From the IMG/VR virus record IMGVR_UViG_3300044712_002679, positions 180,406 to 244,405 of that record: 64,000 bases of DNA. One strand, given 5' to 3'. Below, in pieces: positions 6,205-12,756 of the stretch. The DNA comes from a virus. Numbering within the stretch: the first letter of the stretch is position 1; each line of letters opens with the position of its first letter. The notes beneath the pieces are model-generated. The model did no database searches. It worked only from the letters and a program-made list of their open reading frames with translations, and had not been told where the DNA came from. A program made the position numbers and the translations under genes.

Positions 6205-6294
6205 TGCGGTGTGGAGAAGTTGGTCATCTCACCTGTCTCATAAGCACGGAGTCCCTAATAAGGTTTAACACAGGTTCAAATCCTGTCGCCGCTA
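6205..6294 (+). pseudogene. Diverged copy of the initiator tRNA gene (anticodon loop CTCATAA) with a broken anticodon stem and about a 21-nt insertion
   Basis: Shares TGCGG.G...CGCCGCTACA ends and the D-arm GAGAAGTTGGTCATCTC with the adjacent tRNA-fMet. T-arm ACAGGTTCAAATCCTGT. The 3' strand of the anticodon stem does not pair. Confidence 0.3.
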
Positions 6295-6308
6295 CAAATA
6301 TCAAACAT

Positions 6309-6381
6309 TGCGGGGTGGAGCAGTTGGTAGCTCGTCGGGCTCATAACCCGAAGGTCGTTGGTTCGAGTCCAACCCCCGCTA
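6309..6381 (+). tRNA. tRNA-fMet (CAT), bacterial initiator type
   Basis: Nearly identical to E. coli tRNA-fMet. It has a 1:72 mismatch, the GGG/CCC anticodon stem, loop CTCATAA and T-loop GGTTCGAGTCC. Confidence 0.8.
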
Positions 6382-6514
6382 CAAAAATAAATAAAAGTAA
6401 AACGATGAAAAATTGTATGAACATATGTAATTATTGCAACATTAATATTATTAATGATGATGAACGTATGGATTATAGTTTACATTGGATTGGATAAATT
6501 ATACTTAGATGAGT

Positions 6515-6550
6515 AAAAAAGCCAATCCTTAAACAAGATTGGCTTTTTTT
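6515..6550. terminator. Rho-independent terminator-like hairpin
   Basis: aaaaaagccaatccttaaacaagattggcttttttt. Confidence 0.55.
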
Positions 6551-6597
6551 ATTAAAATTGTTCTTTGACATATTGGGAAATAAAATAAAATGATGTA

Positions 6598-6660
6598 ATT
6601 AATCGTCCGATTATCGGATGATTGTTCAAAAAATCGGATGATTTTCGGGCGATTAATTAA
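6598..6660. repeat. Long inverted repeat (taattaatcgtccga ... tcgggcgattaattaa) enclosing direct repeats of atcggatgatt
   Basis: A 14-15-bp stem with one mismatch. Located between tRNA genes. Confidence 0.4.
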
Positions 6661-6662
6661 AT

Positions 6663-6748
6663 GTTGCGGTATGCAAATGGCCTAAGCGAACAGACTTTCA
6701 TTCTGTACTTCTGAAAAGAAGTTGCGGGTTCGACTCCCGTCCGCAATA
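6663..6748 (+). tRNA. Type-II (long variable arm) tRNA with anticodon UUC (Glu), which is non-canonical. Discriminator A73
   Basis: Acceptor GTTGCGG/CCGCAAT, 3-bp D-stem, anticodon stem ACAGA/TCTGT with loop CTTTCAT, variable hairpin ACTTC-TGAAAA-GAAGT, T-arm GCGGGTTCGACTCCCGT. Confidence 0.5.
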
Positions 6749-6756
6749 CTTTTTTA

Positions 6757-6830
6757 TGCTGCTTTCGTATAATTGGAATAGTACCTCAGACCTCAATCTG
6801 GAAAATACGGGTTCGAGTCCCGCAGGCAGT
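6757..6830 (+). tRNA. tRNA-like sequence with a good T-arm. The acceptor and anticodon could not be resolved
   Basis: T-arm CGGGTTCGAGTCCCG at 6806-6822. Confidence 0.2.
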
Positions 6831-6836
6831 ACATTT

Positions 6837-6908
6837 GGCGCATTCGTCTAACGGTTAGGACGTTTGGTTTTCAACCAAAAAATGGGATTTCGATTATCCC
6901 ATGCGCTA
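6837..6908 (+). tRNA. tRNA-Glu (TTC)
   Basis: Acceptor GGCGCAT/ATGCGCT, D-arm GTCTAACGGTTAGGAC, anticodon stem TTTGG/CCAAA with loop TTTTCAA, T-arm GGGATTTCGATTATCCC. Confidence 0.8.
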
Positions 6909-6984
6909 CTAATGAATAAAGAAAACATTCAGCAAACAAAAATTGACTGCAAATCAAACAAAACCGTTTTCTGTTTCATATTTT

Positions 6985-7068
6985 GGTCTCGGGGGCTGCT
7001 TGGTGTGGCCGCCTGCCTGTCACGCAGGAACCGTAAGGATCAGGAGGGTTCGAATCCCTTCGGGACCG
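6985..7068 (+). tRNA. tRNA-Asp (GTC) with an unusual 15-nt variable region
   Basis: Acceptor GGTCTCG/CGGGACC, anticodon stem CCTGC/GCAGG with loop CTGTCAC, insert AACCGTAAGGATCAG before the T-arm GAGGGTTCGAATCCCTT. Confidence 0.55.
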
Positions 7069-7079
7069 CATTTAAATTG

Positions 7080-7170
7080 GGGTGCGTTGCTTCATGGGGT
7101 CTGTAAAACCCTTCTGCGTTAACAAAATAGAAGCTGGTGGCAGTTTTGAGGTTCAATTCCTTCGTATCCC
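7080..7170 (+). tRNA. D-arm-less tRNA-like gene with a Tyr-type anticodon hairpin (GTA)
   Basis: Acceptor GGGTGCG/CGTATCC, a 9-nt linker, hairpin GGGGT-CTGTAAA-ACCCT, a 35-nt region with a D-loop-like GCTGGTGGC, T-arm GAGGTTCAATTCCTT. Confidence 0.35.
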
Positions 7171-7192
7171 ACAAATTGAACGCAAATTATAT

Positions 7193-10811: not shown

Positions 10812-10895
10812 AAATATTTGCATCGGAAGGTGTAATTTGCCTTTATGTAAAAGTGTAATAATTACGTAATAAAAGCACATAATGTAATAAGGGTA

Positions 10896-10965
10896 CGTGA
10901 CATAGGTCAGGGGTAGACCGCTGGTGCGAAACCAGAAGTCGGTGGTTCGAGTCCATCTGTCGCAA
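10896..10965 (+). tRNA. tRNA, anticodon unresolved (loop TGCGAAA)
   Basis: T-arm GGTGGTTCGAGTCCATC, acceptor CGTGACA/TGTCGCA, D-arm GGTCAGGGGTAGACC. Confidence 0.45.
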
Positions 10966-10966
10966 C

Positions 10967-11114
10967 GAAGATTCCTGGCAGTGGTGATGTCAGCTACACA
11001 GGTAGGTGTGGTGTCTTAACAGACTAAGTTAATGTAAAAATTTAAAATTAGTTGAATAATATTGCGCATAAAAATTTAATGAAATTAAATTAGGTTCGAA
11101 TCCCTTGATCTTCA
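10967..11114 (+). tRNA. tRNA-like gene with about a 75-nt insertion
   Basis: Acceptor GAAGATT/GATCTTC with a T-loop GGTTCGAATCCCTT. The ends are 148 nt apart. Confidence 0.35.
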
Positions 11115-11119
11115 CGATT

Positions 11120-11190
11120 GGTAATATAGTTTAACGAATAGAATGGCTGCGAGTCAGCAGTTGATGGTGGTTTGATTCCATCTGTTACCG
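11120..11190 (+). tRNA. tRNA, anticodon unresolved
   Basis: Acceptor GGTAATA/TGTTACC, T-arm GGTGGTTTGATTCCATC. Confidence 0.45.
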
Positions 11191-11193
11191 CAA

Positions 11194-11264
11194 AATAATA
11201 TAGCTTAATTGGATAGAGTTGCCGTATTAGCGGTATGGTGTTGGTTCGAATCCTTCTATTATTA
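11194..11264 (+). tRNA. tRNA-like, anticodon unresolved, with an all-A/T acceptor stem
   Basis: Acceptor AATAATA/TATTATT, D-arm TAGCTTAATTGGATAGAGT, T-loop GGTTCGAATCC. Confidence 0.4.
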
Positions 11265-11282
11265 CAAAAAAACACAATTATT

Positions 11283-11504
11283 ATGGAAAAGACAGCATTT
11301 CAATCACGTATTGAAAAGGAAAATGAAGTTTTAAAATTTTTAAATCGTGAAATTTTAAAAAGTGCAAAGAAAGGTGATTATCATTATTATTGGGATATCA
11401 CAGGGTTGAGTGATTATATGATAAAAGGTATAATTGCAACATTAGAAAAGGAAGGTAAATTCATTAAAAGTAAAGGAACAAATTTCAAAATTATACATTG
11501 GTAA
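11283..11504 (+). CDS. Hypothetical protein
   Basis: ORF trimmed to MEKTAFQ at 11283, after the tRNA at 11194-11264. Confidence 0.4.
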   Translation: MEKTAFQSRIEKENEVLKFLNREILKSAKKGDYHYYWDITGLSDYMIKGIIATLEKEGKFIKSKGTNFKIIHW

Positions 11505-11519
11505 TTTAATATATAATGT

Positions 11520-12146
11520 ATGATAAAATTATTTGAAGAATATACAAAAATAGATAAAATTGATACATTTATTAATTTTATGAAACAATATAAATTAACA
11601 GAAATTATAATTGATTCTGAACTTGATAAATATATTATTAATAGTATCAAATTTAATAAGAGATATGATAAATATGTGTTAAATTATCAAGCTATTAATA
11701 GACCATATATTGAAGTTGAATTATCAAGTTTATCATCATCATTTATAGATAATTTGTATGTTTTATGTAAAACTGAAGATTTATTCAATATAGAAAATCA
11801 ATTAAATTCGACTTCGATTGATTTTGATAATTTTGTTAACATCTTAAAAAATTGCAAAGAAAAAATTAATTTTAATAAAGATATGTTTACATCATTATGT
11901 GATTCAGGATGGGTTGAAGATATTAATAAATTTAACTTTCAAGATATATTATTTTCAACACATCCAGAATCATATAAACCATTTTTGGATGAATGTTTTT
12001 TACACTTAGAATACAAAAATGATGATCCAACATTAGAAGAAATGGTTTTACATCCAAAGATTTTAATTAAGTATAATTCATTATTGGGTGATTATTATAA
12101 ACAAAAATTAATGGAACAAAAAGCAAAAAAATACAATATAATTTAA
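11520..12146 (+). CDS. Hypothetical protein of the CTS-like family (N-terminus MIKLFEEY, C-terminus KKYNII)
   Basis: 208-aa ORF. The N- and C-termini are shared with the 34172-37318 array. Confidence 0.55.
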   Translation: MIKLFEEYTKIDKIDTFINFMKQYKLTEIIIDSELDKYIINSIKFNKRYDKYVLNYQAINRPYIEVELSSLSSSFIDNLYVLCKTEDLFNIENQLNSTSIDFDNFVNILKNCKEKINFNKDMFTSLCDSGWVEDINKFNFQDILFSTHPESYKPFLDECFLHLEYKNDDPTLEEMVLHPKILIKYNSLLGDYYKQKLMEQKAKKYNII

Positions 12147-12473
12147 AAATTAAAAAACTTACGAAATGGACACAATGATGATTGACACAGAGTATAAAAC
12201 CGAATTCATTAGAATAATGGATGAAGTTTTCGAAGATTTTGATTTTGATTTTGAATTGGATTTTAGTATATTTAGTATATTTAAATCAAAAAAATCAAAA
12301 GAATAAAAACACTAAAATTGCTGAAAAGAAAAACCAAGAATATTATTTGGGGTATAATTGGAATTGTTTTTTGTGTATTATTTTTACCAATACTGTTTCC
12401 AATATATATTATCTTATTTATATTTATTGCGATATTTGATAATAAAGAATAATTTTATTTCCCAATATAAAAT

Positions 12474-12554
12474 GCCTCAGTATTAGCACTGTCTTCGAAA
12501 CAGTAGTCGTATAGCGGATAATGAAAAACGTGGGTTCGAATCCCTCCTGGGGTA
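12474..12554 (+). tRNA. D-arm-less tRNA-like gene with an Arg-type anticodon hairpin (TCG)
   Basis: Acceptor GCCTCAG/CTGGGGT with two G:U pairs, a 7-nt linker, hairpin ACTGT-CTTCGAA-ACAGT, a 25-nt region with ATAGCGGATA, T-arm GTGGGTTCGAATCCCTC. Confidence 0.4.
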
Positions 12555-12664
12555 CGATGTAAAAGGGTTAAATGATGATTAATAGGGTCTATTTTTAAAT
12601 CTAGATTAATAAATAAGACTATTGATATGTAATTTTTCGTGACAGTTCAAATCTGTCTACATCA
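12555..12664 (+). tRNA. tRNA-like gene with an internal insertion
   Basis: Acceptor CGATGTA/TACATCA (6 of 7 pairs) and T-arm GACAGTTCAAATCTGTC. The ends are about 110 nt apart. Confidence 0.3.
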
Positions 12665-12682
12665 CAAATATATTTAAATGAT

Positions 12683-12756
12683 GTGCTTATGGTGTAAATG
12701 GAAACATACCTGAATACGAATCAGGCGACTTGAAGGTTCGAATCCTTCTAGGCATA
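12683..12756 (+). tRNA. tRNA-Arg (ACG)
   Basis: Acceptor GTGCTTA/TAGGCAT, anticodon stem CCTGA/TCAGG with loop ATACGAA, a 5-nt variable region, T-arm GAAGGTTCGAATCCTTC. Confidence 0.75.

Follow-up and report, generated by a model that had tools for sequence, protein, structure and literature searches.

Does a phage tRNA array in which well-formed genes stand beside misshapen ones record the erosion of surplus copies, or does it hold tRNAs of an unusual build? The question is raised by a 64,000-nt stretch of viral DNA, here called the window (IMG/VR record IMGVR_UViG_3300044712_002679, positions 180,406 to 244,405), in which 30 co-oriented tRNA-type genes lie within 6.5 kb (6205–12757, + strand) as a mostly polycistronic array, with a small tRNA-Gln array 12 kb downstream. 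An initial annotation had described the large array as a mixture of pristine and eroded genes, a description that did not survive comparison with related loci. On comparative sequence evidence, most of the odd-looking genes are conserved non-canonical tRNAs rather than decaying copies, because they recur across relatives with compensatory changes; only three to five units look decayed.

ARAGORN called 22 tRNAs in 6205–12757 and three tRNA-Gln genes at 24944–25172, all on the + strand, and the Rfam tRNA model RF00005 (gathering threshold 29 bits) gave 22 array matches of 31.6–67.9 bits and the three Gln genes at 54–61 bits. Each list has one gene that the other lacks (11120–11190 found by Rfam only, 7323–7399 by ARAGORN only), so that their union is 23; with introns allowed, ARAGORN added a unit at 9568–9720. 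The T-loop motif GTTCRANTC occurs 26 times in the window, always on the + strand and always within the two arrays, against a mean of 2.8 and a maximum of 8 in shuffled sequence. Seven of these copies (at 7151, 7465, 9185, 9531, 9699, 11094 and 12645) fall in units that the finders did not call, and seven called tRNAs carry a variant T loop; motif-bearing units and these seven together make up the 30 tRNA-type units of the array, eight of which are missed at the RF00005 gathering threshold. The earlier count of about 30 genes was thereby borne out. What did not hold was the impression of an unusually large array: the tRNA complement of huge phages reaches 67 and rises with genome size (PMC7162821), and the array is therefore of ordinary size for a phage of ~0.5 Mb.

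The window comes from such an AT-rich huge phage (genome ~501 kb, 23% G+C); two of its proteins are recorded on a 501,337-bp JGI contig. Related loci, numbered with the prefix L, were fetched from Logan, ENA and JGI contigs by exact-protein look-ups with ORF344 and ORF72 and by one metagenome pattern scan, giving 40 related sources in all; L006 is LR756504, and L009–L012 are the closest relatives of the window. Scans of IMG/VR with the single proteins ORF344 and HNH gave no relatives, and an exact-pattern scan of viral contigs for the core of the unit at 7405 gave none. Relatives of ~400 kb keep the synteny that runs from an IMPDH-like gene to ORF72 and on into the tRNA array, and a YqeY gene upstream of the array is also present in the closer relatives; the order of genes within the array differs widely from relative to relative. 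At the nucleotide level the tRNA-type units, most of the odd ones included, are 90–100% identical to their counterparts in L009–L012, the exception being the tRNA-Met at 8951 (~80%), whereas the adjacent ORF344 and HNH genes reach 77–83% and 88–90% and the single alignable intergenic stretch ~70%. Across all fetched loci, irregular units with homologs retain 74–100% identity. These sequence comparisons indicate purifying selection on structure, in the canonical units and in most of the irregular ones.

Five irregular units form a class with an added variable arm: an initiator-like tRNA(CAU) at 6205–6295 (91 nt, 21-nt variable region; ARAGORN, Rfam 45.1 bits), tRNA-Glu(UUC) at 6663–6749 (87 nt; ARAGORN), tRNA-Asp(GUC) at 6985–7069 (85 nt, 15-nt variable region; ARAGORN, Rfam 38 bits), tRNA-Cys(GCA) at 8823–8907 (85 nt) and tRNA-Met(CAU) at 8951–9035 (85 nt, 13-nt variable region), all on the + strand. 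They combine normal 7/5 acceptor/T branches and canonical 7-nt anticodon loops with variable regions of 13–21 nt. In the window copies, hairpins of 3–6 bp form in Glu 6663 (6 bp, GAAA loop) and Cys 8823 (GGA-GAAA-UCC); the variable regions of Met 6205 and Met 8951 have a weak hairpin or none in the window copy and hairpins in homologs. The anticodons of the class, CAU, UUC, GCA and GUC, are not those of Leu, Ser or Tyr, and the extra-arm tRNAs are thus placed outside the canonical class II families, to which the tRNA-Tyr genes at 7651 and 8496 belong as normal members.

The added arm is a retained feature. In most long Glu, Met and Cys homologs its stem is kept with a differing sequence and tetraloop (GGA-GAAA-UCC, UAGA-GAAA-UCUA, AUC-UUCG-GAU, GUUC-GGAA-GAAC and CAGCU-AUUA-AGCUG are examples), and in a few the variable region is expanded without a stable hairpin. 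Met 6205 has kept the 1:72 mismatch of an initiator and lost G-C pairs of the anticodon stem, which is weakened; its ortholog is the first gene after ORF72 in L010 (96% identity) and L032 (90 nt), L029 holds an 82-nt form, and the substitutions among relatives preserve structure. Compensatory changes maintain the extra-arm stem of Glu 6663, which has orthologs of 88 nt in L032 and L035 and a long Glu counterpart of 90 nt in L037, and long tRNA-Asp genes recur in L035 (91 nt) and L041 (85 nt). Among the five distinct homologs of Met 8951, 15 of 21 predicted pairs show compensatory change and none is broken; the hairpins of the Met homologs close with UUCG, GAAA, GGAA or AUUA loops. The Cys 8823 family (seven distinct homologs) has an invariant GCA anticodon and U73 and a variable region of 11–17 nt that folds as a hairpin in four of the seven; compensatory changes occur in 7 of the 10 anticodon- and T-stem pairs, and the acceptor stems, read directly from the sequences, differ in sequence and are fully complementary in all seven.

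A length survey of the lineage, covering 221 distinct tRNAs from 41 sources, placed tRNAs of at least 80 nt among Met (13 of 22), Cys (7 of 11), Asn (7 of 30), Glu (4 of 18), Arg (4 of 18) and Asp (3 of 23). The tRNA-Lys of LR756504 is also long, so the extra-arm habit reaches a 636-kb phage of another clade. Long variable-arm tRNA-Lys(UUU), Asn(GUU) and Arg(ACG) occur in relatives, the positions of long-armed genes being 9047–9135 in LR756504, 13128–13214 and 13997–14086 in L037, 13750–13836 in L032 and 2822–2916 in L055; L055 holds a 95-nt unit called Ile(GAU).

Long variable arms on anticodons other than those of Ser, Leu and Tyr, and polycistrons of irregular tRNAs, are familiar from the allo-tRNAs and selC* tRNA-Cys (PMC5389517), and Cys 8823 and its homologs share a long arm, U73 and GCA with the latter. 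Those tRNAs have 8/4 or 9/3 acceptor/T branches, whereas the window units are 7/5 with covariation; they come from Acidobacteria, Deltaproteobacteria and other bacteria and their phages, and no D-arm-less class is described among them. By these structural features the extra-arm tRNAs are not members of the allo-tRNA/selC* group.

The second class lacks the D arm. Its three units, at 7405–7484, 9129–9204 and 12474–12555 (all +), share a plan in which a 6–7-bp acceptor stem is followed by a 7–8-nt linker and a 5-bp anticodon stem, and, 3′ of the anticodon arm, by a ~25-nt segment with an invariant GG and a normal T arm. The anticodon loops are canonical: CUGAUAA (GAU, Ile) at 7405, CUUAUAC (UAU, Ile/AUA) at 9129 and CUUCGAA (UCG, Arg) at 12474. 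Pairing in the 7405 family, judged on 14 distinct homologous sequences, covers 98.9% of cells, and in 9 of 20 pairs both sides have changed; none of 500 shuffles was as good, and slid controls reached 28–43%. Homologs were found in 15 further metagenome contigs, and the covariance model R1 scores 7405–7484 at 104 bits. A 7-bp extra-arm stem proposed for this unit fails in the homologs, and a 4-bp version of it holds. In the 12474 family (eight distinct sequences) 95.6% of cells pair, 6 of 17 pairs differ on both sides, and slid controls lie at 40–46%. Rfam matches the window copy from 12474 (31.6 bits), and covariation supports this start; ARAGORN’s alternative, a 97-nt tRNA-Arg from 12459, has a 5′ strand that is not conserved in L037. 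The unit at 9129 has homologs in L032, L041, L053 and L055, and takes the place that relatives give to canonical tRNA-Ile(UAU).

Searches with the D-arm-less covariance model gave further paralogs in many related contigs, with anticodons UAU, GAU, UCG, UCU and CAU in proper 7-nt loops with U33, and only weak matches (at most 24 bits) in the T5, Bop, Chewbecca and LR7565xx loci. In L032, UAU and GAU D-arm-less units directly follow the long Met tRNA, at the place where L009 and L037 have canonical Ile-GAU and Ile-UAU. A 9129-type unit and a canonical Ile-UAU never occur together in the sampled loci, many of which are short contigs, so that the absence is weak evidence. The window may hold a fourth member: the unit at 7078–7172 (+; T-loop motif, fold z −1.46), which neither finder called, combines an acceptor stem and a T arm with an additional GUGG-looped hairpin, and folds to the D-arm-less plan with a Tyr-type CUGUAAA loop (GUA); no homolog was found in the fetched loci.

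tRNAs without a D arm exist in mitochondria, metazoan mt-tRNA-Ser(AGY) being an example; they are organellar and have co-evolved translation factors. The window units resemble them only in outline: the D arm is missing between acceptor and anticodon stem, and the acceptor, anticodon and T arms are retained. They differ in belonging to a bacterial virus, in their canonical T loop and in the ~25-nt GG segment.

Other irregular units fall outside these two classes. At 9568–9720 (+) a tRNA body carries an insert of 70–100 nt in place of the anticodon loop, holding a hairpin with a tip of variable length. Orthologs in L011 and L032 preserve the unit, its acceptor and T stems changing in compensatory fashion. 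In the L032 ortholog a perfect 5-bp anticodon stem flanks the insert and puts it at 31/32, against the 37/38 that is canonical for spliced archaeal and eukaryal tRNA introns. ARAGORN’s reading of the unit as a Pyl/CUA suppressor with an intron was rejected, the implied loop being conserved in neither L011 nor L032. A group I intron model gave no match at its gathering threshold or at E ≤ 1 over 5900–13100; inserts in array units measure 55–100 nt, against ~200 nt or more for group I introns. The 10896–10966 unit (+; Rfam 47.9 bits) pairs a conserved body and covarying stems with a hypervariable loop, UGCGAAA with G33 in the window and different in every relative (GGAGCAA, UGGGAAG, a 10-nt loop in L037). 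The 79-nt unit at 9738–9816 (+), called “Ser-UGA”, has the loop ACUGAUG with C33 in place of U33 and no long arm; it is 95% identical in L029 and L049, and a compensatory acceptor change separates homologs. A class-II-like tRNA body at 9405–9552 (+), called by ARAGORN at a lowered threshold, bears an inserted hairpin of ~60 nt at the D-loop region and an anticodon loop of 8 nt, CUCGUACA; it folds with z −2.88 (none of 200 shuffles as good) and has no homolog in the fetched loci. Between tRNA-type units, 113 nt at 9207–9319 fold with z −3.2 (1 of 200 shuffles as good) into nested hairpins that include a T-arm-like 5-bp stem with a 7-nt loop; the fetched loci gave no homolog of the segment, and Rfam no match.

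Real erosion is the fitting description of three units, and possibly of five. The Glu-derived tRNA at 6758–6832 (+; ARAGORN “tc”) has a 6-nt anticodon loop, CCUCAA, in place of the 7-nt loop of its L029 ortholog, a normal tRNA-Glu(UUC), and is likely a pseudogene. Probable pseudogenes are also the disrupted unit at 10967–11117 (+; T-loop motif, fold z −0.41), where an AT-rich insert precedes a broken T stem, and the AT-rich remnant at 12556–12668 (+; T-loop motif, fold z −0.72), which retains an acceptor and a T arm only. The tandem pair at 11120–11265 (+) would make up the five: two paralogs of 72 nt, tRNA-like and short in the anticodon loop (Rfam 42.2 and 41.7 bits; ARAGORN “gt” and “tt”). 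Neither these two genes nor the units at 10967 and 12556 have a homolog in the fetched loci; a “tt” tRNA of LR756504, tried as a relative of 11194–11265, is not homologous.

About a dozen genes are canonical: fMet, Glu, three Asp, three Asn, two Tyr, Ile-GAU and Arg-ACG, all on the + strand. The tRNA-fMet at 6309–6382 (Rfam 66.8 bits; cloverleaf) has the marks of a bacterial initiator, an unpaired U1·U72, a GGG/CCC anticodon stem and A73, and is ~88–90% identical to the E. coli initiator genes; the initial annotation had recognized its E. coli-like character, the 1:72 mismatch and the anticodon stem. Canonical genes follow for Glu(UUC) at 6837–6909 (61.9 bits) and Asn(GUU) at 7193–7266 (ARAGORN and Rfam; 96–97% identical in L010 and L029), then for Asp(GUC) at 7323–7399, whose D arm is weak and which Rfam misses, and for class II Tyr(GUA) at 7651–7735 (ARAGORN; 76–96% identity in seven relatives). 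The interval 8496–8734 holds Tyr(GUA), Asn(GUU) and Asp(GUC) (ARAGORN and Rfam), and the series is completed by Asn(GUU) at 8739–8813 (67.1 bits), Ile(GAU) at 9048–9124 (67.9 bits), Asp(GUC) at 9320–9395 (63.3 bits) and Arg(ACG) at 12683–12757 (52.3 bits; 95% identical in L009, L011 and L012). The CCA end is encoded in three array genes, Tyr 7651, Tyr 8496 and Ile 9048. The Glu, Ile and Arg genes, the class II form of tRNA-Tyr (here two genes) and the encoded CCA ends had all been predicted correctly; Asn, listed with two to three copies, has three, and Asp was rightly listed, with four copies in place of the three given. The Gln trio at 24944–25172 (+), with anticodons UUG, UUG and CUG, likewise stands as described. 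tRNA copy number agrees in part with the amino acids most used in the window, where Asn makes up 9.6% of residues, Asp 6.7%, Tyr 6.3%, Glu 6.8% and Ile 10.7%, and AUA codons number 46 per 1000.

Scans for sigma-70 promoters and terminators were uninformative, the DNA being too AT-rich. A conserved intergenic element at 6910–6983, in the gap between Glu 6837 and Asp 6985, reads AGAAAAC ... CAGCAAA ... TTGAC ... TCAAAC ... GUUUUCUGUUUC; it is present in L009, L029 and L035 and in two copies in L032 (fold z −1.6), and may be a promoter or regulatory site or a small RNA.

The array also houses a free-standing HNH homing-endonuclease gene at 7790–8494 (+), one nucleotide downstream of the start first given for it, and a paralog lies at 25232–26077 (+), 60 nt downstream of the Gln trio, so that the picture of a bacterial-type phage tRNA array with HNH genes in and beside it is sound. 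The array protein matches PF01844 (23.7 bits against a cut-off of 21.4) and phrog_10822 (3e-46); the paralog matches the same models (24.3 bits; 3.5e-53), is 62% identical to it over 151 aa and has a triplicated N-terminal module. Both proteins gave only HNH-family models at or near threshold, with no GIY-YIG match listed. In a tblastn search of 50,697 phage records the array protein matched T5 hegA at 30% identity over 80% coverage (E 4e-13), and it is 40% identical to an Enterococcus phage protein annotated as hegA/F-TflIV. In all five HNH homologs inspected (T5, Enterococcus phage Bop, Bacillus phage Chewbecca, LR756504 and LR756511), the gene lies in a tRNA array on the strand of the tRNAs. 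By sequence and context, the window genes are assigned to the T5 hegA/F-TflIV family. They share with T5 hegA/F-TflIV, and with F-TflI and F-TflII, homology, the HNH motif and the position of a free-standing reading frame amid same-strand tRNA genes; they differ in being only distantly identical and in the triplicated module of the paralog. The F-Tfl reading frames lie in the T5 tRNA cluster (PMC2330249). The likeness to T4 segB proposed earlier holds as a functional analogy: SegB too is a free-standing endonuclease whose gene lies within a tRNA cluster, and it drives preferential inheritance of the region (PMC2330249); its stop codon abuts a tRNA processing site, much as the HNH stop codon ends 1 nt before Tyr 8496. 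It does not extend to homology, SegB being a GIY-YIG enzyme and T5 hegA/F-TflIV the closest relative of the window proteins.

The distribution of the array HNH gene is patchy. After the ortholog of Tyr 7651, L010 has it intact and L009 and L013 have it 5′-truncated; L012 and L018 retain short remnants of a deleted copy, and L029, L032 and L037 lack it. L010 also has a second, diverged copy after tRNA-Glu. Because intact, truncated, deleted and absent states coexist among relatives, the gene is read as a selfish element; this comparative pattern is the behavior of a homing endonuclease gene and upholds its earlier description as mobile. The tRNAs directly downstream of it fit endonuclease-linked cassette exchange: where the window has HNH, Tyr 8496 and Asn 8585, L029 has an Asp gene and a 9738-type unit, and both Tyr 8496 and Asn 8585 are without a match in those near relatives whose sequence spans this part of the array. 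In the fetched loci the only matches of Tyr 8496 are in LR756501 and L046 (82%), and Asn 8585 is matched by LR756501 alone (85%).

ORF344 (9858–10811, +; 317 aa from the first conserved Met) is duplicated in some relatives as two diverged copies beside different tRNAs (983–1987 and 4110–5059 in L009, 321–1325 and 2717–3661 in L011). The junction upstream of it in L009 and L010 keeps the first 17 nt of a tRNA-Tyr gene, and this remnant suggests that ORF344 may itself be mobile. It was considered as a new endonuclease and set aside, having no Pfam, PHROG or PDB sequence match; a Foldseek search of PDB with its AlphaFold model (pLDDT 60.6) gave nothing at E ≤ 0.001. Two more homing-endonuclease-like reading frames were noted, at 56549–58474 (−; 641 aa, phrog_3339 at 2e-100, DUF7487) and 20891–21922 (−; 343 aa, phrog_20046, weak GIY-YIG), and the genome seems heavily colonised by such genes.

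Taken together, a model for the array emerges. From the gene calls, homologies and covariation we infer that the array is expressed, as a transcript that host RNase P and RNase Z would cut into tRNAs, with CCA added after processing, since only three genes encode it. The canonical tRNAs, once charged, would top up decoding of the amino acids most used by the AT-rich genome and sustain translation when the tRNAs of the host are cleaved or run low. Ten or more further units, conserved and in the two structural classes, would serve as working decoders whose altered bodies change recognition both by host tRNA-targeting nucleases and by phage-encoded tRNA enzymes, so that the phage would hold a structurally distinct back-up for key anticodons. 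The HNH genes, as active endonucleases, would settle in tRNA spacers, where cleavage and repair would shuffle neighboring tRNA cassettes between co-infecting relatives. A canonical and an irregular gene coexist for Glu, initiator Met, Ile-GAU and Asp, pairings that, by analogy, would suit bet-hedging against tRNA-targeting defences. Such defences and the escape of phage tRNAs from them are documented (PMC10264068, PMC11555353; PARIS and T5 tRNA-Lys, PMC11464382). The array is like those systems in that its isoacceptors duplicate host anticodons and differ in structure, and in that Met, Glu, Asp, Asn, Tyr, Arg, Lys and Cys anticodons are common nuclease targets; it is unlike them in that escape is known through substitutions in the anticodon stem-loop, whereas here the body is altered and the loops are canonical. 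One suggestion, from Al-Shayeb et al., is that synthetases of phages may charge their “own tRNA variants” (PMC7162821), and the extra arm could be a private identity mark for such enzymes; the window holds no synthetase.

As an explanation of the whole locus, an array with working irregular decoders and selfish HNH genes is in our judgment fairly probable. Its strength differs between the two classes. The extra-arm tRNAs most probably decode, to judge from their complete cloverleaves, invariant anticodon loops and retained identity elements, and because the arm is confined to tRNAs whose synthetases rely mainly on the anticodon. Several points weigh against the model. The D-arm-less class is less certain to decode, and may not decode at all, because tRNAs without a D arm are not known to function on bacterial ribosomes or with bacterial EF-Tu. 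Pairing of the 5′ linker with the GG segment is inseparable from chance (best helices average 4.2 bp, against 3.9 bp in cross-family controls), and the pattern used to search for the 7405 family fixed part of its anticodon arm, leaving the acceptor, T and extra stems free. The relatives are metagenomic and not fully independent, and for several irregular units the sampled loci offered no homolog. Nor does the gene content follow demand throughout: the Arg tRNAs decode rare CGN codons where AGA dominates, three genes serve Gln although it makes up 2.3% of residues, and no Lys, Leu or Phe tRNA is among those of the window. Nuclease evasion, finally, is argued by analogy to work on T5 and mycobacteriophages. 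A more specific proposal is that a freshwater/anaerobic huge-phage lineage keeps two undescribed tRNA architectures, class-II-like Met, Cys, Glu, Asn and Asp and D-arm-less Ile (GAU, UAU), Arg (UCG, UCU) and Met/Ile (CAU), as working decoders that form a phage-private set, invisible to host tRNA-targeting immunity or specific to phage tRNA enzymes; taken jointly, these claims are possible, and we hold them tentatively.

How far the irregular units work as tRNAs is also the point on which two other explanations divide. If the array were a codon-compensation set only and its odd units decaying, functionless duplicates, as first proposed, one would understand the broken loop of 6758–6832 beside its normal L029 ortholog, the units at 10967 and 12556, which fold no better than shuffles and lack homologs, and the copy numbers that track the common amino acids Asn, Asp, Tyr, Glu and Ile. 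Decay would not leave most irregular units 74–100% identical in relatives whose ORF344 and HNH genes alongside reach 77–90%, every stem maintained by compensatory substitutions, the anticodon loops canonical and invariant and the irregular classes recurring in 15 independent metagenome contigs, and we regard this explanation as improbable. The same conservation is compatible with stable RNAs that do not decode, acting as decoys or sponges for nucleases or modifying enzymes, as regulators or as processing punctuation. For the D-arm-less class this is a serious rival: the class keeps the parts seen by RNase P, the CCA enzyme and anticodon nucleases and is altered in the core of the L-shape. A hypervariable loop without U33, as in the 10896 family, cannot be an ordinary anticodon, and the 9568 unit has its long insert where a loop should be. 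A tRNA-like RNA is annotated in the T5 tRNA region, and doubt whether irregular tRNAs decode attaches equally to the allo-tRNAs, since Mukai et al. found irregular tRNAs charged but unused, or uncharged (PMC5389517). The complete cloverleaves of the extra-arm class, with identity elements such as U73 and GCA in Cys, speak for decoding instead, as do cases in which the irregular form is the sole array copy of its anticodon (Ile-UAU in the window, both Ile forms in L032); a stoichiometric decoy, moreover, would need very high expression. Over the irregular units as a whole, a non-decoding role is unlikely, though to be reckoned with.

Two further alternatives concern the genome and its HNH genes. 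Very low G+C, large glycosyltransferase and nucleotide-sugar genes and the many reading frames without matches could point away from a phage, to a giant virus of eukaryotes or to a bacterial replicon, whether chromosome or plasmid. The window is densely coding in the standard bacterial code, with a G+C content of 17–36% that peaks over the array (35–36%) and is ~23% elsewhere; it encodes a gp32-type single-strand DNA-binding protein, many PHROG families and a T4_Y16D family match, its top DNA matches are the uncultured huge phages LR756501 and LR756504 (636–735 kb), its 400-kb scaffold relatives are syntenic, and its class II tRNA-Tyr and initiator are of bacterial type. The mimivirus early-promoter motif AAAATTGA occurs 45 times against 34 expected, a number reached in 1 of 100 shuffles, and its matches do not lie at gene starts; with the motif barely above chance and these phage hallmarks in view, a giant-virus origin was rejected, and a non-phage origin of any kind is barely credible. 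The HNH proteins, for their part, might be domesticated for DNA nicking, packaging or tRNA-cluster expression instead of mobile. In favor of this, family members are very numerous (4528 proteins at E ≤ 1e-20) and often intact, the gene is always on the tRNA strand, and T5 F-Tfl enzymes nick DNA, T5 DNA having specific nicks. A domesticated gene fits poorly with near-identical relatives in which it is intact, 5′-truncated or deleted with remnants, with more distant relatives that have the same array and no HNH gene, and with adjoining tRNAs at 8496 and 8585 that near relatives lack; we consider domestication quite improbable.

Set among known tRNA clusters, the array is a member of a familiar kind. 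Clusters in huge phages, in T4 and T5 and in Bacillus and Enterococcus myoviruses likewise consist of co-oriented bacterial-type tRNAs with short spacers, interspersed with small reading frames and endonucleases, and the scaling of tRNA number with genome size in huge phages (PMC7162821) takes in the window array. LR756501, LR756504 and LR756511 also have arrays rich in Asn, Asp, Tyr and Ile. The window array differs from these clusters in that at least a third of its units are structurally non-canonical yet conserved, and from the arrays of T5, Bop, Chewbecca and LR756511 in that their long tRNAs serve Ser, Leu and Tyr only and the D-arm-less model is unmatched there. A literature search for long-arm or D-arm-less phage tRNAs gave nothing specific, its coverage being incomplete and no proof of novelty.

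For a huge phage it is routine to carry a large tRNA array that houses a homing endonuclease gene, and the point of interest is the irregular classes. Standard annotation labels these conserved non-canonical units as ordinary tRNAs or misses them, so that counts of tRNAs in huge-phage genomes, and the calling of pseudogenes there, may be subject to systematic error. If the irregular tRNAs decode, the bacterial ribosome, EF-Tu and synthetases would accept wider structural limits, escape from tRNA-targeting defences could run through the shape of the body and not the anticodon loop, and the engineering of orthogonal tRNAs would gain natural scaffolds; should the units not decode, they would form a new family of phage tRNA-like RNAs, possibly decoys.

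Several features outside the arrays were noted in passing. The closest relative of ORF72 (96%) is in L028 (NCBI GCA_043658615.1, contig JBIGLD010001699.1), a contig of a deposited genome assembly with short, fragmentary called genes, whose end cuts off the stretch downstream of ORF72; ARAGORN found no tRNA in its fetched part. Candidates for tRNA maintenance lie near the arrays at 2950–3366, 16211–16678 (−), 19178–19930 and 29884–30630, all with partial or weak matches: among them are a YqeY/GatB-like protein, a P-loop kinase weakly like polynucleotide kinase, and two HD-domain proteins, one of them weakly like the C-terminal part of tRNA nucleotidyltransferase. Upstream of the array, at 205–1924, an IMPDH/GMP-reductase-like gene is apparently split by an intein, with a weak HNH-endonuclease match in 205–1230 and a C-terminal intein splicing motif at the start of 1214–1924; the gene is uninterrupted (342–376 aa) in L029, L032 and L037. 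A glycosylation gene island at 37851–51448 encodes a 1752-aa protein with several glycosyltransferase domains, a UDP-GlcNAc 2-epimerase, a nucleotide-sugar dehydratase/epimerase, a UDP-glucose dehydrogenase, methyltransferases and a further GT2 enzyme. Five copies of AAAATTGA at an exact spacing of 33 bp lie at 13333–13472 (−), inside the reading frame 12855–13709 (−), where the spacing is that of a 33-bp tandem repeat encoding an 11-aa repeat in the protein.

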